From: an uncultured Collinsella sp.
GTDB lineage: Bacteria; Actinomycetota; Coriobacteriia; Coriobacteriales; Coriobacteriaceae
Length of the DNA stretch: 64,000 bases
Direction of reading: 5' to 3'
Assembly (NCBI GenBank): GCA_900545165.1
Contig: UQYA01000002.1
Span: forward strand, 2,543-66,542
Below are positions 8,427 through 25,173 of the stretch, one piece after another (the stretch's first letter is position 1; each line of letters begins with the position of its first letter). The position numbers and the translations under genes are program-made. The notes below the pieces were generated by a model that worked only from the letters and a program-made list of their open reading frames with translations, did no database searches and had not been told where the DNA came from.

Positions 8427-9260
8427 CTAACGAGCAGAATCGATTTTTGCAATCAAGTCGTTCGCCCATGCCACGGCATCATCGACAGTCGGCAAAACGT
8501 TAAGTCCTTCCGCCTGGGAGAAATACAGTGAGTCCCAGCCCACTCCCCTCGAGATCATTGGAGGCCACTCCTGCTCCGCACGATACGCAAAGAGTCTGAT
8601 ACAGACCTCTCGAGTTTTTAGGTAATCAATTTCCCCGTTGGAAATTGCAATCTGGAGATCTATCAGATCATGGGCGCGCTCGCTGCCGGGGCTGCTCGCA
8701 GCATGAAGTTTCTGGGCAATCTGATGCTCGAGCCTCATGCACGGAACCGGCCCCGGTTCGGGAAACCCGAGACCTTTCAATATTGCCGCAGCTTCAGGCG
8801 AGGAAACCATATCGGGATCGTCGGCGTCGCCGATTTCGTTATGACCGACCTCAAGCGGCAGCGTCATCCACGATTTACCATTGTAGGCAATCTTGATTTC
8901 GAACGGACGCATGACGTAAGCAGTTGGAATTCCCTTCGGAGATGCGGGCTCCCTCGGAACAATGGCACCCGAGAATCCGTTCCAGCCCATAGTGAGCGAA
9001 TCTTCAAGCTTCGTCATGTAATCGTTCAGTGAGGATGCCCTGGCGGTATCGAGGTCGCGCGAGAACCGCGTGGCATCCTTCCCAAAGCGAATCTTCAGGG
9101 CATTTCCACCCTTTGCGGCTCCATCGGGTAGCATTTGTCCAACAACAACGGCCGCAATGAGCCTTTTAACGCGGCCCGGTTCTTCGCCCAAATCAGTGCA
9201 GAGTCGGTCTATCGCTATGTCAAGGTTACGTCTGCTGGTTGGCTTCTTGACTTCCTTCAC
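8427..9260 (-). CDS. abiEii: AbiEii/AbiGii-family nucleotidyltransferase toxin (DUF1814)
   Basis: 277 aa with an ...FSRDLD... nucleotidyltransferase-type segment. Its GTG start overlaps the antitoxin stop (GTGA), giving the classic AbiEi-AbiEii gene order. Confidence 0.8.
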   Translation of the reverse strand: MKEVKKPTSRRNLDIAIDRLCTDLGEEPGRVKRLIAAVVVGQMLPDGAAKGGNALKIRFGKDATRFSRDLDTARASSLNDYMTKLEDSLTMGWNGFSGAIVPREPASPKGIPTAYVMRPFEIKIAYNGKSWMTLPLEVGHNEIGDADDPDMVSSPEAAAILKGLGFPEPGPVPCMRLEHQIAQKLHAASSPGSERAHDLIDLQIAISNGEIDYLKTREVCIRLFAYRAEQEWPPMISRGVGWDSLYFSQAEGLNVLPTVDDAVAWANDLIAKIDSAR

Positions 9261-9784
9261 GACAGCTCCTTCATCAGTCTCTCATGCTCATTGGAGGTAA
9301 TAAGGCCCTCGGCTTGAGCGTGCTTGGTTGCCTCGATGAGGCGTTCGGTCATAACGGACCCCTTACAAGCCTCAATCGCATCGGCAACGCATTGAGAAGG
9401 GATTCCTTCATAGAACGTCGTTTTCGCATTCTCTGGAGCGGGCACTGTTTTTACCCAAGCTGGCAGTTTGCGGCGAATACGCTTTGGTGTTGCCACGGTC
9501 ACGGCACGAGGATCAACAAGTGCAAGTGCGTGCATAGACAGCACTGATTCGCCCCACAGGAAACCCTCGTCACCAACAAGAGCCACTGCCTCCGCAAAGA
9601 CGTCCCGGGGCGTCGGAACCCATTGGGTGAGCTTGTACACCCCATGTCCTCGGCGCATCAATTTCCCAGTGGCACACCATCGGCTCAGTTCTCCGGTGGT
9701 TACGCCAATCTCGCGTGCCTGCGCAGCAGTCACGATGCCGTAGCCATCTGCCGCCAGTTCGAATATTTCATCAAAGTGTTTCAT
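9257..9784 (-). CDS. abiEi: AbiEi-family type IV antitoxin (winged-helix N-terminus)
   Basis: 175 aa. N-terminus GIVTAAQAREIGVTTGELSRWCATGKLMRRGHGVYKL is the typical AbiEi wHTH. It is translationally coupled to the toxin gene. Confidence 0.8.
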   Translation of the reverse strand: MKHFDEIFELAADGYGIVTAAQAREIGVTTGELSRWCATGKLMRRGHGVYKLTQWVPTPRDVFAEAVALVGDEGFLWGESVLSMHALALVDPRAVTVATPKRIRRKLPAWVKTVPAPENAKTTFYEGIPSQCVADAIEACKGSVMTERLIEATKHAQAEGLITSNEHERLMKELS

Positions 9785-10445: not shown

Positions 10446-11030
10446 CTATTCGGCATCCTTAAACTGAACTTCGTACTTCTCGCCCATCCGCTCACCAATT
10501 CCAGTGACGTACCGGCCCAAGAGAGTTTTAGCTCTTTCACGGGCGCTGCTCATCAATGCTGAATTGCCCTCGGCACTTTTTACCATTTCATTTTGGGCTT
10601 CTTCAAGCGCAGCAGACTGATCAACTGTCGTAATAGGAGTTAGCAGTCCGGTATCGCTATAGATATCAGAAAAGGTGCTCTCGTCGGCTTGGGGCTGACC
10701 AAGGACCTGCGCATTAGGGAGCGTGATAGTTACGACATTGTTCTCATCCGGCTTACTGACATCTACCTTGGAGACGTCAACGCCCAGTTGCACCGTTCCG
10801 TCATACTCGAACCACGCTTTCTTGTATCCCACGTTTATCCCAAACAACATATTGGTGCCGTCGTTATAGATTTCCGCGACGTTATGGAATCTGCACTCGA
10901 CGGTAGCAAGCTCGGCAATCTTCGTATAACCCGAAAAATCAGGCTCTTCGTCTTTTTTGGCGCAACCCGAAAGCCCAGTAAGTGACAGCGCCACCACGAG
11001 GGCAAAGCATACCAACCATGGTTTACGCAT
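10446..11030 (-). CDS. DUF4230-like lipoprotein
   Basis: ORF trimmed to ATG 11030 (GGGGGAG upstream). Signal peptide plus lipobox LSGC. The body (ELATVECRF..., GVDVSKVDV..., ITLPNAQVL) matches the DUF4230 pattern as I remember it. Confidence 0.65.
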   Translation of the reverse strand: MRKPWLVCFALVVALSLTGLSGCAKKDEEPDFSGYTKIAELATVECRFHNVAEIYNDGTNMLFGINVGYKKAWFEYDGTVQLGVDVSKVDVSKPDENNVVTITLPNAQVLGQPQADESTFSDIYSDTGLLTPITTVDQSAALEEAQNEMVKSAEGNSALMSSARERAKTLLGRYVTGIGERMGEKYEVQFKDAE

Positions 11031-11763
11031 TGGAGTCAGTCTCCCCCTTGTAATCGGCCAACGGTTTGAAATCAAGCTTGTACTCATCCTCGATAAGCGG
11101 CAGCGTCAGCGCCTTTACGGTATCCCGCAAGCTCGCGTCCGCCTGTTTTTTGATCTCCTTTTTATCGACTTCATCTGCGGCATCTTTGCGACAAAGTGAC
11201 AGAACATCTTTCATATCTGCAGTTGCGTTTTCGGGAAGATAGCCAAACTTACTATTGTCGAGCTGTGGCTCGCTCACCTGCGCTTTGGGGAGATAGGCGG
11301 TAACGGTCTTATTCTCTTCGTCAATGTCAAACTGGATGTCGCTCATCGTATACGATGCACGAATGTGAGCCTCGTATTTAACGCGATAGTCCACGCGATC
11401 CATCCAGAGGAACCTGCCGTGCTTCTCGACGATGCCGTGGTAGGTGTAATCAACCGTAGAAAGACTGTCGATATCTACAGCAGACTTAAGATCCGATGTC
11501 GTGAGGTACTGAGTTTCGTGGTTATCGGTTATCCAAGGAAGGCCACCGCCAAAAAAACTGGCAAGGGCCACCACTATGACCACGACCAAAACAATCTTTA
11601 CTTTGGTCGATAGCTTTCCAAAATGCTTGGCAACCTTCTTACCCCACTTGTCATTCGCCTCGACCGCTTCTTTTCGAGGCGCTTCCACACGCTCATCATG
11701 CCCGGAGGTACATTCGGACTGAATGCCCCTCTCATGTTTGCTATGTTCCAAAACAAGCCTCAC
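11023..11763 (-). CDS. DUF4230-like membrane-anchored protein (paralogue of the downstream gene)
   Basis: 246 aa with an N-terminal TM segment (IVLVVVIVVALASFF). The layout is similar (DYTYHGIVE..., VTAYLPKAQV...). It overlaps the next gene by 8 nt. The start codon (GTG 11763) is uncertain. Confidence 0.6.
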   Translation of the reverse strand: MRLVLEHSKHERGIQSECTSGHDERVEAPRKEAVEANDKWGKKVAKHFGKLSTKVKIVLVVVIVVALASFFGGGLPWITDNHETQYLTTSDLKSAVDIDSLSTVDYTYHGIVEKHGRFLWMDRVDYRVKYEAHIRASYTMSDIQFDIDEENKTVTAYLPKAQVSEPQLDNSKFGYLPENATADMKDVLSLCRKDAADEVDKKEIKKQADASLRDTVKALTLPLIEDEYKLDFKPLADYKGETDSNA

Positions 11764-11941: not shown

Positions 11942-12429
11942 CTTGCCATCAAATACCTCGCATCCATCCCTCGGCAGATTCAGTCTCAGCCTTCAAACTA
12001 GGCAACCACAGCGGCATGCACAACGTCTGCGGGCTCACCGATTCCGATGAGCCCGCTTTCCGCAATCTGGTTGCCAAAAGCTCCACATTAATGATTGCCC
12101 GCATCGACATTGCAATCGATGTACGGTCAGGGAGTGTTGATAAAAAGTGACTAAACGCTTGACGTGTGAGGACGTAAAAGCCTGCATCCCAAATAAGGTG
12201 GGATCAAGCGTGTGCGTCGGCTTCTTGGCAAGCAGAGCAATGGGCGTACAAGATGTTATGCGAGAAATAGCGATGACAGAGATGCGCAAATAAGGTCGTG
12301 GATAGCAGCTCTCAATGGTCCCAAATTGCAACTAGCTTAAGGACGCATTGAAAAACATAGCTGCACGAATGCAGTCAGGACCACAGTGAAACCCGATACC
12401 ATGACTACCAAACCACAGCAGGCTCAGCA

Positions 12430-13203
12430 CTAGTTGACAGTCCCCTTTTTAATGTGACACTCGATGCCGTGATCAAAACAAAAATCACGGACTTCCCTTG
12501 CACTATCACGATAGAAGCGGGCGCAGTCGTCGTAGGAGCTTGTTAACCTGTCATAGTGCGTCCTGCCAAAAACAATTTTATCGACAAAAGAGATCTTGCG
12601 CAGCAGCGCATCCAAATCTTGCTCGCAGATATTTGGAGTCGGATATGGCTCCATGCTAACCCAAGTCTTACAGCCAGCCTTATGGAGAGACTCGAGAGCG
12701 GCAAGCCTGACTGAGTATGCCGCTGCACCGGGTTCCATCCTTTTCCGATTGTCCTCATCAAGTGACACCAAGGTAATTCCATAGGTGTTCAACGCCGCAT
12801 TAGGCAACGCCGCAAGTTCAACGGGAAGCTCTCCTTTCGTTAGAATGCTGCACGGCTTACCGTACTCGTTAATGAGCTCAATTGCACCCAAGCTCATACT
12901 GCCAACTTCTGGATATCCGAGCATAAAAGGATCGGTTGTAAAGCACAGTTGAACCTGTTTTATCTCATCACAATAACGCGGCAACTCTTTGCGCAGCAGA
13001 TCCAAAGTGTTGTCGACAAGGCTCGGCCGCCGCCATTCCTCGTATGTTTTGACACGCCCAAAACGTTTTGCCATTAAATATGCATAGCATGGAAAATTGC
13101 ATCCATGCGAACAGCCTTGCACATGATTCATCGCCCAATCGCCATATTCAACTTTTGTACGGTAGAGCATACTTTTTCGATATATGTGCCCAAGTTGTTC
13201 CAT
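12430..13203 (-). CDS. three-Cys-motif, radical-SAM-like protein (Gp37/Gp68 DUF5131 / SplB-like)
   Basis: 257 aa. The motif GCSHGCNFPCYAYLMAKRF has C-x3-C-x3-C spacing, not the canonical C-x3-C-x2-C. Downstream TTDPF and ILTKG segments resemble radical-SAM barrel strands. It is the last gene of the hsd operon. Confidence 0.6.
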   Translation of the reverse strand: MEQLGHIYRKSMLYRTKVEYGDWAMNHVQGCSHGCNFPCYAYLMAKRFGRVKTYEEWRRPSLVDNTLDLLRKELPRYCDEIKQVQLCFTTDPFMLGYPEVGSMSLGAIELINEYGKPCSILTKGELPVELAALPNAALNTYGITLVSLDEDNRKRMEPGAAAYSVRLAALESLHKAGCKTWVSMEPYPTPNICEQDLDALLRKISFVDKIVFGRTHYDRLTSSYDDCARFYRDSAREVRDFCFDHGIECHIKKGTVN

Positions 13204-13264
13204 TGTTCTTTAATTCTCTTCTCGCTAAACTTCCTCACACCAAAGATACGACCGACCTAAGCAC

Positions 13265-14491
13265 TCATCTTGCTCGATAAACCTCGTCTTTGAGCGCAAA
13301 GCTCTTTTTTGGCTTTCCTTTCAAAGTGTTCTTGACCGCACGCTCAAGAACACCTTCCTCAATCATTGGGCCCACATAGGTCTTCAAAATAGTATTGCTT
13401 CTGTCAAAGACTCCGCACTCGGAAATCAACGTGGCAGCAATATCGCCCATTTTCATGTTTTGGTGAACGGGCATATGCTGGACAAAATCACTGGCCTTGG
13501 CCGCAATTACGGCAGTCTCAACATTGCGACCATCAACATCCACCGCAAACAATCCCAACTGCTTGCATTGCCGGTCGAGGTTGCGCTTAATCATGTTATC
13601 GTTCATCAGAACGCAACCGTCTGGGCTATTGGTCATATGGATCATTCTATATTTGACGAGCCCACCGACATTAACGCGTTTACTCATATCTTTGATAGGC
13701 ATATTCGTTACATACTTATAGTAAGAACGCGCGTTGTTGCAAAAGAGTTCCGAGAGCGCATGTTCAGCCTGCCAAGCGTCGATCTCTCCAGCCTTATAAC
13801 GAACGACCACTTCTTTCCAGTTACCACTTCCGATGCAGGCATTCAGACGTTCAACCCAAACGCTGGCTTTCGTGAGCTCATTAAAGTCGTCTTCCGGCAG
13901 TTCAACTTCATTTGGAAGTGACAGTGGCACTTTCATGGCAGCGCAGGCAACGCGGAATAAACCAAAACTATTGAAGTTGACCAGGGCCTCCGTGTGAGCC
14001 ATATTCGGCGAATTAGTTAGAAGATCGAGTCGTAGGTCTTTAACCCCGAATGGATCGATGTAATAGAAGACTGTTGAGGGCTTACCGCCCCCACAAACGC
14101 TAGTTTGTTGTGCCCGTCTTATAGCATCCTCGCAACTGGAAACGATAATTGGCGGCTTGATATAGCCGCTGGCTCCCTTTGCTTCGTTAAATGTCGATTC
14201 GAGATGCTTTCTAGATTCCGCGTTGGATTCACTAAGAATGAACTGGATGGGCGTCTTTGAACGATTTTTCTTTGCAATTGCAAAATACTTAGAAAGGGCA
14301 ATCAAGGGAGATCCTTTACTGCCATCGGCAAATAAACCCGCGCCAGCAAAAGCATCGATATAAAGAATGCCGTTCCGTGAAGGTCGATACACTTTAGTGA
14401 AAAAAGGCGTTAGATAGCATGACAGAAGATCATCCTTAGTCTCAGACCACGGATGTTTTGCCTGAAAGTAATCTGACTGATTTTTTGCCAT
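13265..14491 (-). CDS. tcmP: TcmP-like 'three-Cys-motif partner' protein (Rossmann/methyltransferase-like N-terminus)
   Basis: 408 aa. N-terminus HPWSETKDDLLSCYLTPFF...ILYIDAFAGAGLFADGSKGSPLIAL matches the family signature as I remember it, including an FAGxG motif-I-like loop. It is paired with the three-Cys protein. Confidence 0.55.
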   Translation of the reverse strand: MAKNQSDYFQAKHPWSETKDDLLSCYLTPFFTKVYRPSRNGILYIDAFAGAGLFADGSKGSPLIALSKYFAIAKKNRSKTPIQFILSESNAESRKHLESTFNEAKGASGYIKPPIIVSSCEDAIRRAQQTSVCGGGKPSTVFYYIDPFGVKDLRLDLLTNSPNMAHTEALVNFNSFGLFRVACAAMKVPLSLPNEVELPEDDFNELTKASVWVERLNACIGSGNWKEVVVRYKAGEIDAWQAEHALSELFCNNARSYYKYVTNMPIKDMSKRVNVGGLVKYRMIHMTNSPDGCVLMNDNMIKRNLDRQCKQLGLFAVDVDGRNVETAVIAAKASDFVQHMPVHQNMKMGDIAATLISECGVFDRSNTILKTYVGPMIEEGVLERAVKNTLKGKPKKSFALKDEVYRAR

Positions 14492-14523
14492 GCTAAGCCC
14501 ACCTTGCTCTTAGTCCTCATCGT

Positions 14524-17500
14524 CTACTTGAACTTCTCCACCAGCAACTGCCCGATGGCGCTCATCATGGCGCGATACTTCTCACTGTCCTCAAAGAGGC
14601 TGGTAAAGGAGTCCGTGTTCTCCACATAGGCGCGGCGAGCCTCTTCATCGAACACCTTGGGCAGCAGGCTTGATTCGAAGACCTGTCTGCCGTCGCGACG
14701 GATGGTGTCGGCGACCTGCGGGTTTTCGGCGATACGCTTCCACAGCGTGTCGATAACCACACGATCTCCCTCGGTGAAGTTGCCAGCCCACTGCTCGTTG
14801 AACTTATCCACGAGCACCTGCAGCGGGTCGCGCTTCTTGTCGGGCGTCACGGTCTTGGCCGCGCCACCGGGATCGAGCACGCCGCCGCCAGGCTCAAGCG
14901 AAATGCTGCCCTCGAACTCTTGCTTGAGCTTGTAGAAGCGCATCTCGACCTTGTCGTCCACCGCCTCGACGGGGATCTTCTCGACCTTGAGGAGGTGGCG
15001 CAGATAGCTCAGATACACGTACTCCTTGTGCAGGTCGCGATCGAACATGCGAACAATCTGGGTGATGTAGGTGTACCACTTGCAGAAGCTACGCACCTTA
15101 CGACGCACCTGATAGCGCGAGTCGTCATCCAGCTCGTTGTAGCGCGAGACCGCAGGCTTCAAAACGGCAGCAAGCTTGCCCTGCACGTTGCCCTGCGGCT
15201 TACCCTTGTCATCCGTGAAGACAATCTCGGCCGCGGCCTCGATGTCGTCCTCGTCGTAGAGTTTGTAGCCGCGAATGTCGGTCTGCACCTGATAGAGGAG
15301 GTCGGTGTTGATCTGCTCGGAAAGCGACGTCTCGGCATAGAAGCGCTCGAACGCCTTCTGGATATCCTCGGGCTTGTTCACAAAGTCGAGGATGTAGGTG
15401 TCCTCCTTGTCCGGATGGATACGGTTGACGCGGCAGAGCGTCTGAACCGCCTTCACGTCCTTGAGCTTCTTGTCCACCACCAGCGTGTGAAGCAGAGGCT
15501 CATCGAAGCCCGTCTGGTACTTCTCGGCGACAACGAGCACGTCACCATAGTTGTGGAACTCGGCCTTCGTTTGGCTCTCGGCGACACGTTGCCCATCGTG
15601 GCCGACGTTGATAGACGGCTCGGTGTACTCGGGACCGTTGGGGCCATCCACGGGGTCGCTGATGGCACCCGAGAACGCCACCAGCACCTCGACGTCGTCG
15701 TAGCCCTTCTTCTGCATGTAGCGCTTGATCTCGTGGTAGTAGCGAACCGTCGCGAGGCGCGAGGCAGTGACCACCATCATCTTGCCCTTGCCGCGGATCT
15801 TGGTGCGCGTAACGTTGCGGAACGTCTCCACGATGAGCTCGGCCTTCTGACCGAGAGCGTAGGGATGCAGCTCCTTGTACTTGCGGAGCAGCTTGAGCGT
15901 GGGGCTGCTGGGCACATCGGGGTTGTCGGGGACCGTGCGCGCGAGCTCGACGGCCTCCGAATAACTCACGTAGTTGGCGAGGGGGTCCATAATGAAGCCC
16001 TCCTCTATCGCCTGGCGCATCGAGTAGACGTGGAACGGGTGGAAGGACCCGTCAGGCCACTCATCGCCGAAGATCTCGAGCGTCTGTTCCTTTGGCGTGG
16101 CGGTAAAGGCAACGAAGGTCAGGTTCTTGTGACGGCCGTGGCTCGCGAGCTCGTCGGCGAGCTGGTCCTCCCAATCGGCTGCGGCGTCCTCGGCTTCCGC
16201 CTCGATCTCAGCGTACTCCTCGAGCGCGTCGCGCTTGTCGGCAAGGGCGCTCTTGAGCTTGAGCGCGCTCGTTCCCGTCTGGGACGAGTGCGCCTCGTCG
16301 ACGATGATGGCGAAGCGCTTACCCTTGCTCTCGACCTGCTCGTAAATCACGGGGAACTTTTGCAGGGTCGAGACGATGAGACGAGCGCCGCCGTTGATGG
16401 CGTCCCGCAGGTCGGCCGAGGTCTTGTCCTTGCCGATGGTCACGACCGAGCCGATGGCGTGGTCGAAGCCCGAGATGGTCTCCTGCAGCTGGCTGTCGAG
16501 AATGCGACGGTCGGTGACGACGACCACGGAGTCGAACAGCGGGGTGTCATCCACAAAGAGGGATGCAAGGCGATAGGCCGTCCAGGCGATGCTGTTAGAC
16601 TTGCCCGACCCCGCCGAATGCTGCACGAGGTAGTTCTTGCCCGTCCCGTTCGCGCGCACGTCGGCGATGACCTTACGCACGGAGTCGAGCTGGTGGTAAC
16701 GGGGGAAGATGATGCGCTCCTTCTTGCGCTTCACCTCGTTGCCGCGCGCATCGAGCTCTGTCTCTTCCTTGACCTCCAGGTGAAGGAACTTGTTGACGAT
16801 ATCGAGCAGGCTGTCCTTCTGCAGGGCGACCTCCCACAAGTGACTCGTGGCATAACCGTCGGGATTTGCGGGGTTGCCGGCGCCGCCGTCGTTTCCCGCC
16901 CCGGCGGAGCCCTGGTTGAACGGCAGGAAGAAGGTCTTCGCGCCCTCCAGCTTGGTGGTCATGTAGACATTTTCGAGATCGACGGCGAAAAATGCCAGCA
17001 TGCGCGCGTTGAACTTGAGACAGCGACACCGTGGATCGCGGTCCTCGCGCCACTGGCGCATGGCGTTCTCGACGTCTTGGCCGGTAAACTGGTCCTTGAG
17101 CTCTATGCCCACCAGGGGGATGCCGTTCACGTCCAGGACCATGTCGATGGTCTGGTTGCCCGTCTCGGCGAAGTGGAACTGGCGGATGCAGCGGCAAACG
17201 TTCTTGGCATAGCGATCGGCGGCGCTTTCGTTAAGACCGCTCTCCGGCTTGAAGAATACAACTTTGAACGGAATTCCTCGGTGCTTGAAGCCGTGTTTGA
17301 GCACTGCAACCATGCCTAGGCGGTCGACGGCGTCGTTGAAGACTTTGGCGAACTTCGCCGTGGAATCGGAGTTGCACATGCGCTCGAAGCGCTCCCAAGC
17401 CTTGGGCTGCGTCGTCTGGATAAAGTTGACCAGAGTCGTAGCGTCGAGCGCGCGGTCGCGGTGTTCCATGTAGCCGCCGCCGACCATCTGATAGGTGCCG

Positions 17501-17616
17501 TCCTCGACGTAGAGGAGCGAATGTTTATCGTCGCACTTAAGGAAACCGCCCGCAGGCGAGCAGAGGAACGACTCTATGTCCTGCTCGAGGTTCTTTTCCT
17601 TTGTCTGCGCAGACAT
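14524..17616 (-). CDS. hsdR: type I restriction endonuclease subunit R
   Basis: 1030 aa. Helicase motif I is QHSAGSGKSNSIAW and the DEAH box is IIVDEAHSSQ. The size and the HsdR N-terminal nuclease region are typical. Confidence 0.9.
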   Translation of the reverse strand: MSAQTKEKNLEQDIESFLCSPAGGFLKCDDKHSLLYVEDGTYQMVGGGYMEHRDRALDATTLVNFIQTTQPKAWERFERMCNSDSTAKFAKVFNDAVDRLGMVAVLKHGFKHRGIPFKVVFFKPESGLNESAADRYAKNVCRCIRQFHFAETGNQTIDMVLDVNGIPLVGIELKDQFTGQDVENAMRQWREDRDPRCRCLKFNARMLAFFAVDLENVYMTTKLEGAKTFFLPFNQGSAGAGNDGGAGNPANPDGYATSHLWEVALQKDSLLDIVNKFLHLEVKEETELDARGNEVKRKKERIIFPRYHQLDSVRKVIADVRANGTGKNYLVQHSAGSGKSNSIAWTAYRLASLFVDDTPLFDSVVVVTDRRILDSQLQETISGFDHAIGSVVTIGKDKTSADLRDAINGGARLIVSTLQKFPVIYEQVESKGKRFAIIVDEAHSSQTGTSALKLKSALADKRDALEEYAEIEAEAEDAAADWEDQLADELASHGRHKNLTFVAFTATPKEQTLEIFGDEWPDGSFHPFHVYSMRQAIEEGFIMDPLANYVSYSEAVELARTVPDNPDVPSSPTLKLLRKYKELHPYALGQKAELIVETFRNVTRTKIRGKGKMMVVTASRLATVRYYHEIKRYMQKKGYDDVEVLVAFSGAISDPVDGPNGPEYTEPSINVGHDGQRVAESQTKAEFHNYGDVLVVAEKYQTGFDEPLLHTLVVDKKLKDVKAVQTLCRVNRIHPDKEDTYILDFVNKPEDIQKAFERFYAETSLSEQINTDLLYQVQTDIRGYKLYDEDDIEAAAEIVFTDDKGKPQGNVQGKLAAVLKPAVSRYNELDDDSRYQVRRKVRSFCKWYTYITQIVRMFDRDLHKEYVYLSYLRHLLKVEKIPVEAVDDKVEMRFYKLKQEFEGSISLEPGGGVLDPGGAAKTVTPDKKRDPLQVLVDKFNEQWAGNFTEGDRVVIDTLWKRIAENPQVADTIRRDGRQVFESSLLPKVFDEEARRAYVENTDSFTSLFEDSEKYRAMMSAIGQLLVEKFK

Positions 17617-17617
17617 G

Positions 17618-18181
17618 TTACAGCCTCATCTCTCTCAGCTCACGACCGAAAAGAACGAGCCACGGAAATATGCTCTTGTTTAGCACCATGTACATCTTCG
17701 CGCGCTGCTTTTCTGTCGGCGCCGTCCTCTTGTTGAACATATCCACCATGAACTCGTAATCGTTTCGGCCGTCGTAACCGTTGTACCTATTGGGCGGAAA
17801 AGCACCTTTCTCGTAAAGGAAGGCGTAGAGACATCGAGAGAACAGGTCCCTGTTCATGCCGTCGAGTCGTACGTCCGGCCTTCTTGCCTCGAGGGCCTCC
17901 AGCAACTTGATTGCCGCTTTCCAACCTTCAACCTCGTTCTTGAGCTCATCGTTTTCGAACTTCAGGATGCAGGTTGAGCCTATTGGTGAGAGCTCGTTCC
18001 CGTTGACAGAGTTTTTGATAGTGAACTCATACCTAATGCCCTCGTGTCCGCAAAGACAATCGCCAGAAGCGTCCCCATTGTCACGGCATCCCGTCACGTG
18101 CCATTCGGAGATAGCGGCATCCCACGTTTTTGACGATGACGCTTCCAACACGATGCGAGGGAGACGATAGGAATCACCCAT
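17618..18181 (-). CDS. hypothetical Cys-cluster protein embedded between hsdS and hsdR
   Basis: 187 aa. Gaps are 3 nt to hsdS and 1 nt to hsdR. Cys/His cluster TGCRDNGDASGDCLCGHEGIRYEF...PIGSTCILKF. I recognise no family. Confidence 0.6.
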   Translation of the reverse strand: MGDSYRLPRIVLEASSSKTWDAAISEWHVTGCRDNGDASGDCLCGHEGIRYEFTIKNSVNGNELSPIGSTCILKFENDELKNEVEGWKAAIKLLEALEARRPDVRLDGMNRDLFSRCLYAFLYEKGAFPPNRYNGYDGRNDYEFMVDMFNKRTAPTEKQRAKMYMVLNKSIFPWLVLFGRELREMRL

Positions 18182-18184
18182 TGG

Positions 18185-19387
18185 CTACACCTCCCGCTTT
18201 CCGGTGACGGCCTCGTAAATGAGCGACTGCTTGTATGCTTTGAGGTCGGCGATGATAGCCTGTTTGGCCCCTATCGACTCGGCAATGGAAGCATACAGGT
18301 CATCCAGTTCCGCCACGATACGCTGCTGCACCTCGATAGAAGGCACTGGCACCGCTATGTCAAACAGATCGCTTGTATACAAGCGCCTGAAACCATCCGC
18401 AACACCAGAGATGCGAATTATAAATTCATCAATCACTGCTGCTGTATGGAATACGTACTCAAGATATTTCAGTGAGGTTCTCTCCATATCGATGGCCTGA
18501 TAAACGGCATATTCTGGGCTAATCAAGCCGTTGTAAGGCGACACATACATCACACCGTAATACGCCTTTAGCTTATTGAAGACCAGGTCGCCAGCATGGA
18601 CAATTTTGGCACCAACAAGGCTTGATGTCGGATTCGGTATGGCCAGTTCAATAGAACGAAGCACTCCACGAGCGATCGTAATTGACAGCGGCTCTCCGAT
18701 TCCGTCAGGAGATTTATCCTTAGACTCCTTCAGCACGTATTTGAGTTTCTCCCGCGGCGCTTCGTGCGAAACTCTGGTAATCATCTCTTCCAAACGTGCA
18801 GAGCGATACAGGTTCAGCTCCTCGATAGACCGCTCGGCGGCGAAGACGGCGCGGTCGATCTCGCCGCACCTCTCGTCCAGGAAGTCCGCGATACGGAGCT
18901 GCTCGTCGAGGGGCGGCAGAGGCACCATTTCCGACTTTAGCTCAACAAGTGAAATATTTCTTTGGATTGTGCCGACCCCTCGACTGCACAGTTCAAGCAC
19001 CTGCACAAAAGGACCTCTAAATAGATAATTAGCGAAACGATCATCTATATTGCTTGTGTTTTTCTCGAGAACATAGTAAGCGGGGCTGACTATTCCGCGG
19101 TAAATAGATATCCCAACGGATCCACGCCATGCTTGTTGGTTGTTTAGAACAAAATTGCCCGGACGAACCAGCTGATACTTCAACAAAGATTTGCTTGGCT
19201 TATGCACCTGCACCCCATCAGAGTCCACATAGCGGATAACTCCACGATTCAAGTAGACCGAAAGGAGCTCTTCGCTCTCGCAATTTGTGATGGAGACCTG
19301 TGAGTACAGTCGTTTGAACGGTGCAAAAGTCCATCCCGCGGGCACCTCGCCAAGCCACTCGACGCCGCTGTCCTTCATCTCCCGCAT
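18185..19387 (-). CDS. hsdS: type I R-M specificity subunit S
   Basis: 400 aa with two target-recognition halves. Each half is followed by the conserved spacer helix (PLPPLDEQLRIADFLDE; VPVPSIEVQQRIVAELDD). Confidence 0.85.
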   Translation of the reverse strand: MREMKDSGVEWLGEVPAGWTFAPFKRLYSQVSITNCESEELLSVYLNRGVIRYVDSDGVQVHKPSKSLLKYQLVRPGNFVLNNQQAWRGSVGISIYRGIVSPAYYVLEKNTSNIDDRFANYLFRGPFVQVLELCSRGVGTIQRNISLVELKSEMVPLPPLDEQLRIADFLDERCGEIDRAVFAAERSIEELNLYRSARLEEMITRVSHEAPREKLKYVLKESKDKSPDGIGEPLSITIARGVLRSIELAIPNPTSSLVGAKIVHAGDLVFNKLKAYYGVMYVSPYNGLISPEYAVYQAIDMERTSLKYLEYVFHTAAVIDEFIIRISGVADGFRRLYTSDLFDIAVPVPSIEVQQRIVAELDDLYASIAESIGAKQAIIADLKAYKQSLIYEAVTGKREV

Positions 19388-19389
19388 CG

Positions 19390-21186
19390 CTAACGCACCT
19401 CTCCGAAGAGGGCCTCGAGGCTCTCCTCGAGCGTCTTTTCGTGCTCTAAGATGCGCTTGGCGATCTCATCGGCAGGCTCGAGCTCGGCGTACTTGTAGAA
19501 CACGCGCGTGAACGGGATGGTGTAGCCCACTTTGGTCTTCTTCTTGTCCACCCAGGCGTACTTGTTGTACGGGCGCACCTCGCGCTCGATATAGGCATCG
19601 ATATCCTGCGTGAGCGGGATGTCCTCGGTGTCCTCCTTGGCCTTGTCCGCCTGCATTTTCCCGCGCTTGTTAAGGACGGGACCTCCTTTCTCATCAACGA
19701 CGGGGCTCTCCACGGCCACACGGTTGAAACCGAACTCGACCGTCTCCATTAGGCGCGCCTCGACGGAGACCTCCTGCCCGTTGGAGCCGGTACCCACCCA
19801 GGTGGCATCGCGATACTCGGAGTACGCCTGCACGATGAGGTCGCGACAGGGCTTGGTGATGTCGTTCTTCTTGTCGCCGATGCCCTTGCGGCGTTTCTCG
19901 AAGCACCGAGAGGCGTCGATGAGCAGCACGTGATCACGATGCTCCGGCGCCTTTGCCTTGCTGAAGAGCCACACATAGGTTGCGATGCCGGTGTTGTAGA
20001 ACGAGTCGCAGGGCAGCTGCACGATGGCGTCGAGCCAGTCGTTCTCCAGCACGTAGCGGCGGATGCCGTCCTCGCCGCTGCCGGGTTTGCCTTTGTAGAG
20101 CGGGCTGGCGTCTTGGATGATTGCCATCACACCATCGTCCTTGAGCTTCGACAGCCCGTTGAGCACGAAGAGCATCTGGCCGTCGCCCTTGGCTGGGAGT
20201 TTCTCAACCGGGAAGCGCCCGCCGCCGGCGGTCTTGAACTCCTTCTCCACCGCAGCGGCCTGTGGGTTCCACGGGTCTCCGAACGGAGGGTTGGAGATGC
20301 AGTAGTCGAACTTGAAGCCCTCGAACTTGTCGGCGGACAGGGTATCACCAAAGCGCATGTTAGCGTCGTCCTCACCGCGAATGAGCGCGCTCGCCTTCGC
20401 GATGCCGAAGGTAAACGGGTTGAATTCCTGGCCGTAGCAGGTCACATGAGCATCGGCGTCGAGCTGGCGTAGGCGTTCCTCGGTGCAACCGAGCATCTGC
20501 GAGGTGCCCATGGTCTGATCGTAGACCGTCTTGGTGATGCGATCGCCTTCGAAGACGTGCGAGTCTGCCTGGATGAGCAGGTCGGTCATAAGGTACACGA
20601 TATCGCGGCTCGTAAAGTGGGCGCCAGCATCCTCGTCGTAAGACTCAGAGAAGCGCTGGATGAGATTTTCGAAGATATAGCCCATATCCACCGCACGGAT
20701 CTTATCGGGAGACATATCGGCCTGCGGCTTGCAGAAGTCGCAGATAATCTGGTAGAGCAGCGGGGCATCCGGGTCGGAGAGGCGTTCGATCTGGTCGGCG
20801 AACTTCATGCGCGCCAGGATGTCCTGCACGTTGTCCGAGAACCCGTTGATGTAGTCCTTGAAGTTATCCTCGATGTTCTCCGGGTCGGCCTTAAGTGTCT
20901 CGAAGGTGAACTTAGAGGTGTTGTAAAAGGGGTATCCAGAGGCTTCGCGCAGAAAGCCGTCCTTCACGGCAAGTGTCTTGTATTTCTCGGCAGCGGCGAG
21001 AACAGCATTGTGTGTGGGAGCGAGGCAATCATGAAAGCGCTTGATGACGGTCATAGGAAGGATAACCAGGCCGTACTCATGCGGCTTGTAGGGACCGCGC
21101 AGGGTGTCGGCAGCGCTCCAGATAAGGGATGCCTTCTCCTGAATATTAGCGCCAACGGCCTTGATGAGATCGTCGCTGTCTGCCAT
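19390..21186 (-). CDS. hsdM: type I R-M methyltransferase subunit M (N6-adenine)
   Basis: 598 aa with the NPPFG catalytic motif (ISNPPFGDPW) and an HsdM N-terminal domain (IWSAADTLRG). Confidence 0.9.
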   Translation of the reverse strand: MADSDDLIKAVGANIQEKASLIWSAADTLRGPYKPHEYGLVILPMTVIKRFHDCLAPTHNAVLAAAEKYKTLAVKDGFLREASGYPFYNTSKFTFETLKADPENIEDNFKDYINGFSDNVQDILARMKFADQIERLSDPDAPLLYQIICDFCKPQADMSPDKIRAVDMGYIFENLIQRFSESYDEDAGAHFTSRDIVYLMTDLLIQADSHVFEGDRITKTVYDQTMGTSQMLGCTEERLRQLDADAHVTCYGQEFNPFTFGIAKASALIRGEDDANMRFGDTLSADKFEGFKFDYCISNPPFGDPWNPQAAAVEKEFKTAGGGRFPVEKLPAKGDGQMLFVLNGLSKLKDDGVMAIIQDASPLYKGKPGSGEDGIRRYVLENDWLDAIVQLPCDSFYNTGIATYVWLFSKAKAPEHRDHVLLIDASRCFEKRRKGIGDKKNDITKPCRDLIVQAYSEYRDATWVGTGSNGQEVSVEARLMETVEFGFNRVAVESPVVDEKGGPVLNKRGKMQADKAKEDTEDIPLTQDIDAYIEREVRPYNKYAWVDKKKTKVGYTIPFTRVFYKYAELEPADEIAKRILEHEKTLEESLEALFGEVR

Positions 21187-21188
21187 CG

Positions 21189-21395
21189 TTACTTCTCCTT
21201 CTTGGACAGATACTCGATGAGGCTCGTCTTTACGAGAGACGTGAAGCTAACGCCATTGAGAGCAGCCGCCTCCCTAGCGGCGTCGCGCATGTTCTTGGGA
21301 ATGCGGACGGTTACTGCCACGTTCTCGCCGCCCACGAGGAAGCTTCTGAGCTCGCTCGGGGTTGCTTCTCCGTCGATAAGGTCGGCGTACTTCAT
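21189..21395 (-). CDS. ribbon-helix-helix (CopG-like) small protein leading the hsd operon
   Basis: Trimmed to ATG 21395 (GGAGG upstream); 68 aa. The segment VTVRIPKNMRDAAREAAALNGVSFTSLVKTSLIEYL looks like a beta-strand followed by two helices. Its stop lies 2 nt before the hsdM start. Confidence 0.55.
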   Translation of the reverse strand: MKYADLIDGEATPSELRSFLVGGENVAVTVRIPKNMRDAAREAAALNGVSFTSLVKTSLIEYLSKKEK

Positions 21396-21699
21396 GGGAA
21401 CCTCCGCGATTGCATGATGCAATACAAATGCGCCTTTGATTCTAGCAAAGGACTGAAAACTAATAACCGTCTAGCACAGATGGATAGACAAGTAATTAAC
21501 GCAAATAAGAAGGGAGAATAACATTCTGAACCGTCGTCTCTCCCGCCTGAAGGAGCTCGACGAGAACTAGTCGGCAACTCAAAAAGACACCGAGCAAGCC
21601 GCTAACACACTTATCACGTTCCACAAAGAGATGGGTAAGCATGACGCCAGCTTGGGCGAGGGCGCTAATGGCATAGAATTGCAGCCAGACTGCCTGAAC

Positions 21700-24063
21700 C
21701 TATTCATCACTTGTTGCCGGCAAGCTGTTGGGCGGCTCGCTCTCACCGGCGGCACCAAGGTGCTTCTGTATCTTCTCGATTCGCTTAAGGGTTGAAGTCA
21801 AATACCCAAGACCCCTCTTCAACTGCTTAAGCAACCTGCTATCCCTGCGGTCCCCCTTTCCATTCTCCTTCTCGACATCTTCCTCAACACCAGCGATGCT
21901 ACGCTGCACGGCCTCGGCCGCCTTCCGCACCAAAATGGCCCCTTCATGCGGACAGCGGTCAGTTGCCACATCAAGAAAAGCAAGGAGCCTGGAACATTCG
22001 ACGAGCACGAATTGCGCGTAGTTCTCCCCCATCGATGCCGCCAAGGCAACGCCGCCGGAACCCAATAGACCAAGCGCGGCGCCGCCGCCCGTAATCAAAG
22101 CAGTGCCACCGGCCATGCCCATGCCGCCGGCGGCCAAGGCCCCACCGCCAGCTGCAGCAAGGCTCGCATTGACAAGCGCAGCCCCGTGAAGGCCGACAAA
22201 CGAGCCCCCGAAGATACCGACAGCAATATCCGGAGCGAGTACCGCGGCCGCCCCTCCTGCGCCTACGGCCGACGCCACGACAATGACGCCGCCCACCAAA
22301 AGCTTTGGCAATGTACCTGAAAGCTCGCGGAAGCGTGTCCCGCAACGTTTCTCGAGAGAACGTATGGCGTCCAAATCAACCGCGTCTTGTCTCCTGGGAA
22401 ATTCGTGTTTAACCCAAGATTCACTCTCCTTCAAACCTTTGTATTCCTTCTTCTCTTCATCTCCCATCTGGGAATAGGGGCGAAACTCAACCAACTCCTG
22501 TGCAACAAGCAAGGCACGCACTTTACCTCCTCGCCGCCGCGAAACTGTCTCAAGGGCTCCGTACGCATCTTCCTCGCTCAAAAAGTAGCCGTCTGCATCA
22601 ATGCCTAGGCCATCCGCGACCGAATCCTGCCACGCGCGGGCCCAGCTCCTCTTTTGCCCTTTGCGCACTTCGTTCTTCTCGTTCCCGCAGTCGTAGTTGA
22701 TGGCGGCAAGCTTCAGCGAGAAGGCAATCCTCGTCGTTTCTCTATCTAGGCTATAAAAGTGAAATCCATCGAAGATATCCTGGCGGCGCCTGGCGCGCTC
22801 AGTCCAAGCCTCGGACATTTCCTCCGCCATATAGCCCCAGTCGGCATGGAGGGCAAACGCAAGGCGTCCAACTCCAACGTAGTTTATTCGCAAGAAGAGC
22901 TTCTGGGCGAACACGACCTTGTTCCCCTCGCATTCGATACCCGCCCTGACCGCCGCCGTCGCTAGATTCGCCAAAACGAACGAAGTGCTCGAAACCGTGA
23001 CCATGCGGGCGAGAGCTCTGCTGTTGTAGGGCATAAAATGCGAAGCCTTGAGCTTGTGCAAGCCGGAAACCTTGCTCACTTCGCAACGTTCTAGCTCGGC
23101 CTTGAGCCTTGAAAGCATGTAGAGACAACGAACGATAACCTCGTTGGCCACGACTGCTGGCACCTGGCTTAAAGCTTGGTTGAGAAGGCCGACTTCCGTC
23201 CGAAGGTCGAAACGAATGGGCTTGCCGTCCTCGGTTTTGAACGCCGTTCCGTTAAACAGCTTTGAGATCCATTGCTGAATGCGAATATCCTCGCCCTTAT
23301 AGGCAATCTGCATGTCTTGAAAAACAGGCAGGGAGGAGAGCTCCTTTAGCAGGGACAGCACGACGCCGGGAATGCCCGTCCCCTTACCGGGGTTTGAACT
23401 AGACCCCGCCATGTCGCTCACGAGATGCATCGCCCAGAACAGAGTGCCAAACGCGATCTTCTCTGGAACGTTCCTGCCTATAAGAGGGCAGTCGGGATCG
23501 AAGGCGGCGGCAGGCAGGTCAAAGGCGACAAACCGGCCGGCTGTATCGGTACCATAGCCTTTGCCCGTGAATTGCGAGAGGATCGAACACGCAAGGCCAA
23601 CCAAACTCGGGTGGTGCGAGAAATCCCGCAGATGATGTTGGAGCCCGCCGCCAAACTCGGCAGCCAGCTTGTCCGCGGCAAGAGGAAACTCTTTCTCTAG
23701 AAAGCGAATAGCGTCTTCTAGAGTTGCATCCGCCTTTGCCATACCCGCAGACTTGGCAATCGTAAGAACGAATTTGCCAACCTTCTCGTCGCCCCACTCT
23801 TTGGCACCCTCTAGGTTGAAGTCTTTCTGCCAAAGGATATTCAACGCGCCCGTGAGGAGCCCGCTAACGGCTGCAAGTTCATAGTCGAGCTTCGTAGCCT
23901 TTTCAGCCCGAGGGTCAAAATCAAAGAGGACCTCCTCCCCATCGGGAGCGTCCTTAAAACCGACCAGTACGGCGCTACCGTTCAGCGGCGCAGATGTAAC
24001 TTTGGGCAGTTGAGACATGGTGTAGACTATCTCGCCACCACTAAAAACAAGTTCGTCTGCCAT
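21700..24063 (-). CDS. large uncharacterised protein with C-terminal Gly/Ala-rich (glycine-zipper-like) membrane region
   Basis: Track ORF 21700..24225 (GTG start). I prefer ATG 24063 because AGGAGG lies 8 nt upstream, giving 787 aa. A ~95-aa G/A-rich hydrophobic block (about nt 22025-22320) is followed by a charged helical tail. No NTPase or nuclease motif was seen. Confidence 0.6.
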   Translation of the reverse strand: MADELVFSGGEIVYTMSQLPKVTSAPLNGSAVLVGFKDAPDGEEVLFDFDPRAEKATKLDYELAAVSGLLTGALNILWQKDFNLEGAKEWGDEKVGKFVLTIAKSAGMAKADATLEDAIRFLEKEFPLAADKLAAEFGGGLQHHLRDFSHHPSLVGLACSILSQFTGKGYGTDTAGRFVAFDLPAAAFDPDCPLIGRNVPEKIAFGTLFWAMHLVSDMAGSSSNPGKGTGIPGVVLSLLKELSSLPVFQDMQIAYKGEDIRIQQWISKLFNGTAFKTEDGKPIRFDLRTEVGLLNQALSQVPAVVANEVIVRCLYMLSRLKAELERCEVSKVSGLHKLKASHFMPYNSRALARMVTVSSTSFVLANLATAAVRAGIECEGNKVVFAQKLFLRINYVGVGRLAFALHADWGYMAEEMSEAWTERARRRQDIFDGFHFYSLDRETTRIAFSLKLAAINYDCGNEKNEVRKGQKRSWARAWQDSVADGLGIDADGYFLSEEDAYGALETVSRRRGGKVRALLVAQELVEFRPYSQMGDEEKKEYKGLKESESWVKHEFPRRQDAVDLDAIRSLEKRCGTRFRELSGTLPKLLVGGVIVVASAVGAGGAAAVLAPDIAVGIFGGSFVGLHGAALVNASLAAAGGGALAAGGMGMAGGTALITGGGAALGLLGSGGVALAASMGENYAQFVLVECSRLLAFLDVATDRCPHEGAILVRKAAEAVQRSIAGVEEDVEKENGKGDRRDSRLLKQLKRGLGYLTSTLKRIEKIQKHLGAAGESEPPNSLPATSDE

Positions 24064-24158
24064 ACCGGCTTCCTCCTGCAAACGCGTAAAATCAGATTGC
24101 TCTACGCCGCCAAATCCCTCTTCGTAGAAGTATTCGAAAATCTCGGTGATGCAGTTGC

Positions 24159-24434
24159 TCAGAACCTCGTCGGGATAGTTCGCCACTGGCAGCCTATACA
24201 CCTCATTGTGCACGATAACGCACACAGCGTCACGGGTCTCTGCCTATCCGTCCAGCGAATCATGTTAGCAAGCCGCTCTTCGATAATGGAAGCCATTTCG
24301 ATGTCCACGCTCTTGACCTGCTTGGTCTCGGCGGGCGTCAGCGTGTCCTTGAATAGCATCTCAAGCACAGCCCTCTGATGCTGATTCTGGAATCCTTCCC
24401 GCAACCATTCCTTCTGCTTGCGCCCAATGGGCAC
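24159..24434 (-). CDS. small hypothetical protein (91 aa) between the exonuclease and the large protein
   Basis: GTG 24434 with GAGGGGAGG 8 nt upstream, inside the end of the exonuclease gene (4-nt gap). The C-terminal tail is Cys-rich (CALSCTMRCIGC). The last 67 nt overlap the long version of the next ORF. Confidence 0.4.
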   Translation of the reverse strand: MPIGRKQKEWLREGFQNQHQRAVLEMLFKDTLTPAETKQVKSVDIEMASIIEERLANMIRWTDRQRPVTLCALSCTMRCIGCQWRTIPTRF

Positions 24435-24438
24435 CCGC

Positions 24439-25173
24439 CTACCTCCCCTCCGCTTTCAGCTTCAGCAGTAAATCGCCCAGCTCGGGGCACTTGCTGGAAA
24501 GGCGCGTCTGGGCTCGCTCGCCTATCCCCCATCGTTGGCGGATCTCCTGGGCGTGCGGACTCACGTGATAGTCCCCCTCCATCATCTGCTTGAGCAGCTT
24601 GGCGGTCACGCGCGCATCGGCTAGGGCACTGTGGGCGTAGCCCGTCGACTCATCAAACTCGATGCCAAACCACGCCGCCGCGTCACTCAAAGAGACGCAC
24701 CCGTGGCTGCCCACGTCCATGATCGAGGTGTAAAACGCCTGCAGGTCGGCCCAGTCCGTAGGAAATGCGGAAAGGTCGATGTGTTTTGCCTGGCACTCAG
24801 TCAAAAGCTGTCGACGGTCCGTCCCGCTCCAGCAAACTATCTGGGCGGAGTAGCGACCGATCCAATCGCTGAGCCTTTTGATCACCATGTAGAGCGGATC
24901 GGCCATCGCGGTGTCCACAGCCGATATCCCTGTAAGCTCGCGGACGGGGAACACAACGCCTTCGGTAAATTCCGTCTGCACAAACTGCGAAAACTCGCCC
25001 ATAACGTTGCCGTGGTAATCGAGTTTGACGGCGCCGACCTCGATAATCTCATGGCGCAGTCCACGGCGCTGGCGCTGCTTTGGCACCGGCGCAAACTCAA
25101 AGTCCAGCACAATCTGGCGCGCAAAGTTCGTCGTATCGATAGCCGAGATGCACGGCGTCTTTTCAGCTGACAC
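24439..25173 (-). CDS. DEDDh-type 3'-5' exonuclease (ERI-1/KapD-like)
   Basis: 244 aa. Exo I is VLDFEF, Exo II is CWSGTDRRQL and Exo III is HSALADARV. It is the first gene of a three-gene operon. Confidence 0.8.
   Translation of the reverse strand: MSAEKTPCISAIDTTNFARQIVLDFEFAPVPKQRQRRGLRHEIIEVGAVKLDYHGNVMGEFSQFVQTEFTEGVVFPVRELTGISAVDTAMADPLYMVIKRLSDWIGRYSAQIVCWSGTDRRQLLTECQAKHIDLSAFPTDWADLQAFYTSIMDVGSHGCVSLSDAAAWFGIEFDESTGYAHSALADARVTAKLLKQMMEGDYHVSPHAQEIRQRWGIGERAQTRLSSKCPELGDLLLKLKAEGR

Follow-up and report, generated by a model that had tools for sequence, protein, structure and literature searches.

Does a pair of genes at the end of a type I restriction-modification (R-M) operon take part in restriction, or does it travel with the operon as a system of its own, and what would its products do? 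The question is raised by a stretch of 64,000 nucleotides (hereafter the window; contig UQYA01000002.1 of assembly GCA_900545165.1) from an uncultured Collinsella sp. Here, the hsd genes of a type I R-M system are followed by two genes encoding a TcmP (three-Cys-motif partner protein) and a small protein with three clustered cysteines and a radical S-adenosylmethionine (SAM) fold, respectively. The initial annotation, made from the letters and translated open reading frames (ORFs), proposed that co-transcription with hsdMSR reflects a second DNA-modification or nucleotide-directed activity coupled to restriction. The reading favoured here, to which we give a probability of about 0.5, is that the pair is an autonomous, SAM-dependent, nucleic-acid-modifying cassette of a defence island that rides on the hsd operon. 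Pairs of TcmP and three-Cys proteins are widespread (annotation pipelines name them, and they figure among the candidate defence systems), and radical chemistry performed by such a pair on DNA or RNA in defence would be new enzymology.

The operon and the products of its last two genes

Seven genes run head-to-tail on the minus strand (window 12430-21422), in the order and with the spacing initially read; the translations give intergenic gaps of 2, 2, 3, 1, 32 and 61 nt. From first to last, these genes are:

21189-21395 (ATG start, 68 aa) or 21189-21422 (TTG start, 77 aa), minus strand: small ribbon-helix-helix (RHH)/Arc-like protein, from the ORF and weak family matches
19390-21186, minus strand: hsdM, N6-adenine DNA methyltransferase subunit of type I, 598 aa (PF02384 165 bits, PF12161 78 bits, PADLOC MTase_I 662 bits)
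18185-19387, minus strand: hsdS, type I specificity subunit with two target-recognition domains, 400 aa (PF01420 in two stretches, PADLOC Specificity_I 247 bits)
17618-18181, minus strand: orf187, Cys-rich protein of 187 aa between hsdS and hsdR (ORF)
14524-17616, minus strand: hsdR, type I restriction/translocase subunit, 1030 aa (PF04313, PF18766, PF22679, PF04851; TIGR00348 171 bits)
13265-14491, minus strand: TcmP, 408 aa (TIGR04474 96.5 bits, cutoff 53)
12430-13203, minus strand: small radical-SAM-fold three-Cys partner of the SPL/PA0069-like branch (SPL, spore photoproduct lyase), 257 aa (PF04055 above the gathering cutoff, GA)

Pfam domains account for the whole type I set, i.e. HsdM (N6_Mtase and HsdM_N), HsdS (two Methylase_S) and HsdR (HSDR_N, an SF2 ATPase and domain 3); judged by gene content, the system is complete, with three full-length ORFs in one operon. 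At least five further Collinsella or Coriobacteriaceae assemblies in public databases (loci L002-L005 and L007) contain a near-identical seven-gene operon, and two more loci (L006 and L023) carry broken or variant copies. The first gene is likely the operon regulator; its product has weak matches to YlcI/YnfO (27.5 bits), the RelB antitoxin, DUF6290 and Arc-like repressors of PHROG.

The TcmP call is upheld by TIGR04474, which covers residues 14-302 of the protein (profile positions 1-261 of 263), and no Pfam model matches it. An AlphaFold2 model built from 40 homologues (predicted local distance difference test, pLDDT, 87) shows a methyltransferase-like Rossmann core; behind it comes a helical C-terminal region ending in two short strands, which might, by inference only, be winged-helix-like. 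The best Foldseek match in the PDB is the tRNA guanine-N2 methyltransferase Trm1 (3axs, E 7e-5), and other class I methyltransferases come next. The methyltransferase-like FAGAG loop pointed out initially is indeed present, and two motifs of this protein stand out by conservation:

14336-14362, minus strand: motif I YIDAFAGAG, predicted SAM-binding loop, TcmP residues 44-52
14045-14056, minus strand: DPFG motif, TcmP residues 146-149

In motif I, D46, F48, G50 and G52 are invariant among the 40 homologues, and D46 and G52 remain invariant in 66 of 66 partners encoded at the loci surveyed below. In the DPFG motif, D146, P147 and G149 are invariant among the 40 homologues; in the 66-member alignment, D146 is invariant and P147 is conserved in at least 90% of the sequences. 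The invariant motifs of the family can be summarized as D-A-F-A-G-x-G, G-S-P and D-P-(F/Y)-G, the last of which we take to resemble the catalytic D-P-F-G of Trm1-type N-methyltransferases. Across the surveyed loci, TcmP proteins fall into size classes of about 287, 380 and 405 aa.

The partner matches the Pfam model Radical_SAM (PF04055) with 46.9 bits (GA 29.5) over residues 25-203 (profile positions 1-165 of 166). It had first been called DUF5131/SplB-like: the radical-SAM, SplB-like part of this call stands at the level of the fold and the DUF5131 part does not (PF07505 18.9 bits against a GA of 28.9). An assignment to DUF5131/phage Gp37-Gp68 was therefore rejected, the match being subthreshold and aligning only residues 15-58 to profile positions 1-46 of 243. 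The SplB-like PA0069/Rv2578c models are also far from their cutoffs (NF033668, 57 bits for 360; NF038135, 56.8 for 430), and the NCBIfam scan gave no match to an SplB model. The top Foldseek PDB matches of the AlphaFold2 model (pLDDT 90.5) are all radical SAM enzymes, with the highest template modelling (TM) scores, 0.64-0.67, for SPL, a likeness at fold level only. The family profile found nothing meaningful among solved structures (PACSIN and complex I noise), and a fold search of BFVD retrieved generic radical SAM proteins only.

The feature that gave the partner its name lies near its N-terminus:

13078-13116, minus strand: cluster motif GCSHGCNFPCYAY, partner residues 30-42, C31-x3-C35-x3-C39

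The spacing C-x3-C-x3-C, noticed initially, is confirmed (core CSHGCNFPC), and the canonical C-x3-C-x2-C of radical SAM enzymes is absent. In a 31-sequence alignment (A1, 60-84% identity), C31, C35, P38 and C39 are invariant, as are three further cysteines (C87, C118 and C242); 119 of the 120 nearest cluster representatives share the pattern GCxHGCx[YF/H]PC. An exhaustive profile search showed that most relatives bear CxHGCx(Y/F)PCYA and that those scoring around 300 bits bear the canonical CxHGCxYCYA, and a Bacteroides phage radical SAM protein with 28% identity has GCSNGCTYCYL in the equivalent context. Since close relatives keep the canonical motif, that of the partner can be read as an ordinary radical-SAM cluster loop with one proline before the third cysteine; on this conservation pattern, one proline has been added to the canonical motif, and C31, C35 and C39 would hold a [4Fe-4S] cluster. 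A separate metal site unrelated to radical SAM chemistry was rejected, as the canonical motif occurs in the same context in these close relatives.

The canonical motif, here CSHGCNYCYA, is found in one close relative of the partner (P0285, L095 6001-6804; 323 bits), which has no TcmP neighbour and belongs to an element encoding an AAA_25 protein and two integrases. This single observation hints that the proline insertion may track the pairing with TcmP.

Pairing, mobility and linkage to restriction systems

The context of the partner family was surveyed by scanning one genome per GTDB species, which gave at least 590 loci, of which the best-scoring 80 were analysed. Eight of these correspond to the same Collinsella/Coriobacteriaceae type I operon, and the counts of neighbours given below cover the other 72. 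In every one of the 66 loci from other genomes that have a complete upstream ORF, the gene upstream of the radical SAM gene encodes a TIGR04474 TcmP, and the stop codon of TcmP and the start codon of the radical SAM gene often overlap (-4 or -13 nt). Both proteins are even fused in a single polypeptide (P0277, 634 aa) found on four contigs, two of which come from different samples:

L097 5173-7077 and L098 5127-7031: TcmP-radical SAM fusion ORF P0277, flanked by ABC-transporter genes and standing alone

Such a fusion provides good evidence for a joint function of the two proteins, the pairing of which is obligatory in the loci tested. Another protein, P0288 (592 aa), has an architecture similar to that of P0277.

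The radical SAM family is large: more than 7,400 homologues were scored, there are 208 clusters at 50% identity with E <= 1e-30, and at least 590 species genomes carry it. Identity of the radical SAM protein is 57-65% across Actinomycetota, Bacillota, Spirochaetota, Synergistota and Verrucomicrobiota, and the pair has a patchy, horizontally transferred distribution in gut and rumen anaerobes.

Within the window, the pair differs in composition from the genes that precede it. TcmP and the radical SAM gene have a GC content at third codon positions (GC3) of 0.48 and 0.50, respectively, versus 0.84 for hsdR and 0.81 for hsdM, a mismatch that marks the pair as foreign in composition and recently acquired. 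The comparison with Paratractidigestivibacter locates the boundary precisely. The hsd operon of this genus has 83-85% nucleotide identity with that of the window, starting at hsdM and extending through the final base of hsdR (window 14524), where the homology stops, and the slot after hsdR is occupied in place of TcmP and its partner by the PADLOC candidate system PDC-M49A/B (411 and 39 bits; 676 and 112 aa):

14492-14523, minus strand: 32-nt junction where the native hsd core meets the acquired cassette, placed by the homology break at 14524 and the GC3 step from 0.84 to 0.48
L088 11672-14037 and L089 9286-11651: PDC-M49A/B in the slot of the orthologous hsd operon of Paratractidigestivibacter

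A second position of the operon is variable as well. The gene orf187, the product of which has no match in any of the profile libraries scanned (Pfam, NCBIfam, PADLOC and PHROG), is cleanly missing in the Collinsella locus L023, and a homologue is found outside any R-M system in L086, beside genes for a reverse transcriptase and an SLFN-type helicase. Its family comprises 34 homologue clusters, the sole one with an organism name being from Paratractidigestivibacter. Hence, the position between hsdS and hsdR holds orf187 as a presence/absence cassette, and the hsd operon is a scaffold with exchangeable cargo slots, in which orf187 is present or absent and TcmP with its partner alternates with PDC-M49 after hsdR. 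The window thus illustrates the cargo-slot behaviour of hsd operons, the very pattern that Payne et al. used to nominate phage defence candidates (10.1101/2024.01.29.577857).

How often such pairs adjoin R-M genes was answered by the survey. An R-M system lies beside the pair in at least 41 of the 72 loci (about 57%), and it is chiefly of type III, not type I:

32 loci: type III Mod (N6_N4_Mtase, about 700-814 aa) and Res (ResIII, about 955 aa) directly downstream of the pair, same strand
2 loci (L009 and L010): type III genes upstream of the pair
1 locus (L047): pair embedded between type III mod and res
1 locus (L033): type III Res-like gene three genes downstream
3-4 loci (L008, L062, L063 and possibly L039): type I genes adjoining the pair
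2 loci (L055 and L071): large neighbours that are probably of type ISP, judged by size

In the type III loci, mod often starts only 1-10 nt past the stop of the radical SAM gene, and the restriction subunits found beside the pair are of the ATP-dependent helicase type. Other neighbours include type II methylases, Mrr-like nucleases, AbiEii-type ATPases, recombinases and unrelated genes. Further look-ups retrieved an HTH-RT-Mod-Res-TcmP-radical SAM array (HTH, helix-turn-helix; RT, reverse transcriptase) in a defence island, as well as stand-alone copies of the pair beside a Pycsar system or among toxin-antitoxin and AbiE genes. Among 50,697 phage records, a single unannotated 12.9-kb metagenomic record carries both genes and a second, short one carries a partial radical SAM gene; the remaining matches are radical SAM proteins with 25-30% identity, one of them annotated as a PA0069-family protein, and those records gave no TcmP match. 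Owing to this near-absence, a role of the pair as an anti-restriction module of phages was rejected.

The survey adds three points to what was known of these pairs: the partner family includes a branch that is truly a radical-SAM lineage and has a cluster loop expanded by one residue, this branch is obligatorily paired and occasionally fused with TcmP, and its linkage to R-M is mainly with type III but also with type I and probably type ISP systems, across several phyla.

As for expression, the 32-nt and 61-nt gaps contain no promoter-like or terminator-like consensus in a pattern scan, and they fold no better than shuffled sequence. As the gaps are tight and devoid of such signals, the anatomy is that of a single operon, and TcmP and the three-Cys gene are likely co-transcribed with hsdR. 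A weak candidate for the end of the operon lies downstream:

12361-12374, minus strand: terminator-like hairpin with T-run, 56 nt past the last stop (pattern scan)

With low confidence, this hairpin may mark the operon end; such sites are no commoner in the sequence than in shuffles, and its fold is not better than that of shuffles.

A model for the pair and its rivals

TcmP/three-Cys pairs have, as stated initially, no established function: literature searches retrieved only mentions in tables and PADLOC candidates. The pair of the window resembles the known pairs made of TIGR04474 and a DUF5131 partner in having a TIGR04474 gene upstream of a gene for a small protein with three clustered N-terminal cysteines, and differs from them in its partner, which is not DUF5131 by threshold, matches Radical_SAM, is SPL/PA0069-like and has the spacing C-x3-C-x3-C. 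Among the PADLOC candidates, PDC-M30 and PDC-M41 are two-gene A/B systems with a TcmP-like A component, as in the window; they were nominated by 'guilt by embedding' in type I R-M, BREX or DISARM loci (Payne et al., 10.1101/2024.01.29.577857). The main text of this preprint does not discuss the pair, and the type III linkage that dominates here lies beyond its search space. The 287-aa and 380-aa TcmP classes, which are paired with the same radical SAM family, match PDC-M41A (305 bits) and PDC-M30A (E 1e-133), and their partners match the PADLOC B models with about 19 bits at the N-terminus only. By these hidden Markov model (HMM) scores alone, the TcmP of the window reaches only 42 bits with PDC-M30A, over half of the profile, and its partner 18 bits with the B models, again at the N-terminus only. 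As the other TcmP classes match strongly, the pair of the window is, on these scores, a divergent member of a named and functionally uncharacterised kind.

Comparisons with better-known proteins place the partner close to SplB and the PA0069/Rv2578c families, with which it shares the partial TIM-barrel fold of radical SAM enzymes and the GCxHGC...CYA context of the cluster loop; in RadicalSAM.org, it belongs to the same megacluster 5 neighbourhood as DUF5131 and SPL (PMC9477430). Unlike them, it is about 80 residues shorter than SPL, has the extra proline, falls outside their HMM families, and has both an obligatory companion with a methyltransferase fold and a defence-island context. As an accessory at the end of an hsd operon, the pair also recalls genes of the PrrC/RloC type, which lie inside or at the end of such operons, are exchangeable between strains and are thought to back up restriction, PrrC being cited as an accessory gene embedded in a type I R-M operon (10.1101/2024.01.29.577857). 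It differs from them in having neither an ABC-ATPase nor an anticodon-nuclease domain and in its predicted SAM-based chemistry.

A functional analogy comes from tRNA. In the wybutosine pathway, the methyltransferase Trm5 and then the radical SAM enzyme TYW1 act successively on one base. The pair of the window likewise combines a predicted class I methyltransferase fold, the best structural match of which is a tRNA guanine methyltransferase, with a radical SAM enzyme, although no homology to TYW1 or Trm5 was found and the pair is a mobile accessory module rather than part of a core tRNA pathway.

Combining these data, the following scheme can be proposed for the favoured reading. The type I R-M operon, native to Collinsella, would have received an autonomous, mobile two-gene cassette in a variable cargo slot at its 3' end, and read-through from the hsd genes would probably express this cassette. 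The two products of the cassette would act as one unit, presumably a complex. TcmP would bind SAM and a nucleic-acid base by means of DAFAGxG and DP(F/Y)G and would probably N-methylate the base. The partner, a minimal SPL-like radical SAM protein without a substrate-binding extension of its own, would use the [4Fe-4S] cluster on C31, C35 and C39 to cleave a second SAM, and the resulting 5'-deoxyadenosyl radical would attack the same base or its new methyl group, the order of methyltransferase and radical SAM steps being modelled on Trm5 and TYW1. The substrate would likely be DNA, a preference founded on the SPL-like fold and the R-M company, and the role likely accessory to helicase-type restriction enzymes in anti-phage defence, either by adding a second mark or by acting on DNA that escapes restriction.

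The proposal of the initial annotation, namely that the pair is integral to restriction as a second DNA modification or nucleotide-directed activity working with HsdMSR or Mod/Res, for example with the R-M complex as its means of targeting, deserves to be weighed against this scheme. It agrees with the tight same-strand arrangement that lacks a terminator after hsdR, with the three ATP-dependent R-M types adjoining at least 41 of 72 loci, with the pair lodged between mod and res in L047 and the 1-10 nt gaps before mod in many type III loci, and with Sinorhizobium meliloti, in which a TcmP gene and the defence helicase gene hna are listed as one putative transcriptional unit (PMC12445080). It also agrees with the covariation of radical SAM and type III Res identities (Spearman 0.82 over 28 complete type III loci), which fits long co-inheritance, with the reservation that the pairs compared are phylogenetically non-independent and that plain physical linkage in a mobile unit can explain it. 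The hsd system is nevertheless complete without the pair, an orthologous operon bears an unrelated candidate system in the same slot, and the GC3 mismatch speaks for recent acquisition; moreover, the closest relatives and the fusion protein stand alone, and a specific protein-protein coupling is hard to reconcile with R-M families as unrelated as types I, III and ISP. We hold integral participation in restriction to be unlikely. What survives of the coupled activity first proposed is a nucleic-acid-directed SAM chemistry, plausible from the Trm1-like and SPL-like folds and accompanied by strong R-M linkage; what has to be corrected is the place of the pair, which in the window did not evolve as part of the hsd operon: its composition is foreign, its slot holds PDC-M49 in an orthologous operon, and its closest relatives lack R-M. 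The function of the pair might instead be selfish or serve a mobile element, by modifying DNA or RNA of the element or the cell so as to evade other restriction or defence systems or by stabilising islands in an addiction-like manner; the pair would then accumulate in defence islands only on account of their being insertion hot spots. The swap of cassettes after hsdR, the canonical-motif relative without TcmP in the integrase/AAA_25 element, the stand-alone copies beside variable polysaccharide loci and the distant radical SAM relatives next to replication genes in Bacteroides phages all accord with this idea, which we judge quite improbable because the TcmP-linked family is nearly absent from phages and because the lasting association with type III res and the constant gene order within R-M operons seem to exceed what random insertion would give. 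Least of all do we believe in a housekeeping-type nucleic-acid repair, in which an SPL-like enzyme and its helper would reverse a base lesion and lie on mobile DNA by chance. The highest TM scores do point to SPL, homologues carry the JGI label 'DNA repair photolyase' and there are distant HMM matches to the PA0069/Rv2578c SplB-like families; yet the label is an automatic COG name, those HMM scores are far under the cutoffs given above, the distribution is patchy and horizontally transferred, the genes sit in defence islands beside R-M, and an obligatory partner with a methyltransferase fold has no parallel in SPL repair.

Several points weigh against the favoured reading itself. The closest relatives of the window pair have no R-M beside them and are found where polysaccharide loci end; as they do without it, R-M is not required by the pair, and its link with defence is guilt by association. 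The structural matches of TcmP have probabilities of up to 1.0 but TM scores of only about 0.3, its family profile finds no sequence-level relative among solved structures (SurE noise only), and its catalytic competence is predicted from motifs only. RNA may instead be the substrate, since both the top match of TcmP and the mechanistic precedent are tRNA enzymes. The best-scoring 80 of at least 590 loci may not represent the whole family. The sole hint from RNA is one 159-nt contig (14372-14530) that spans the hsdR/TcmP junction and comes from an 'RNA?' run of uncertain type; the four runs compared with the operon, their type being uncertain, gave only fragmentary contigs, too little to show or exclude co-transcription. 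Finally, apart from the table mentions and the PADLOC candidate preprint, the literature searched contains no functional study of TcmP/three-Cys pairs and no experiment on any member.

A bolder version of the favoured reading, which we find doubtful, is that TcmP and its partner form a radical-SAM system acting directly on DNA in anti-phage immunity. The methyltransferase-fold subunit would then present a base that the SPL-like radical enzyme would hyper-modify, or from which it would remove a modification made by the phage, and the helicase-type enzymes of types I, III and ISP would discriminate or cut DNA that would otherwise escape. Radical-SAM defence enzymes described to date are, as far as we know, all viperin-like and act on free nucleotides. 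Direct action on DNA, if true, would therefore constitute a new mechanistic class of defence chemistry and would give a function to the large TcmP/three-Cys family, one among many comparable defence candidates.

Possible composite type III units and the surrounding island

The type III-linked pairs, as four-to-five-gene units, offer a clean and cheap experimental entry point. On three metagenomic contigs (L083-L085, 4270-9997), type III mod, res, TcmP and the radical SAM gene come immediately after genes for an HTH protein and for a reverse transcriptase of 308 aa (RVT_1). In the type III class with a short TcmP (about 287 aa; L021 7965-9086 and equivalents in L024-L074), the upstream gene encodes a second, divergent TcmP paralogue of about 375 aa, which matches PDC-M30A with 53 bits and no Pfam model. 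Often, the gene that follows type III res encodes an SNF2 helicase of 1,200 aa, which bears a Swt1-like HEPN domain at its N-terminus, or an AIPR abortive-infection protein:

L042 9484-13092, L057, L060, L025 15843-17591, L045 and L054: loci with SNF2/HEPN or AIPR genes

These SNF2/HEPN and AIPR neighbours suggest that type III-linked pairs belong to larger composite defence units.

In the window, the operon is surrounded by a low-GC island of about 9-28 kb, which encodes AbiEi/AbiEii, two DUF4230 proteins, a BnzB-like protein, an RNase T-like exonuclease and an ATPase_2/DUF234 protein:

8427-9784, minus strand: AbiEi antitoxin and AbiEii nucleotidyltransferase toxin, at the island edge
10446-11763, minus strand: two DUF4230 proteins of 213 and 246 aa, encoded side by side immediately downstream of the operon
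21700-24225, minus strand: BnzB-like protein of 841 aa, just upstream of the operon (PADLOC BnzB of the Bunzi system, 108 bits, residues 109-297; no Pfam match)
24439-25173, minus strand: RNase_T-family exonuclease
26048-27439, minus strand: protein with ATPase_2, DUF234 and a winged HTH

The last two, the exonuclease and the ATPase_2/DUF234 protein with its winged HTH, are likely further cargo of the defence island.

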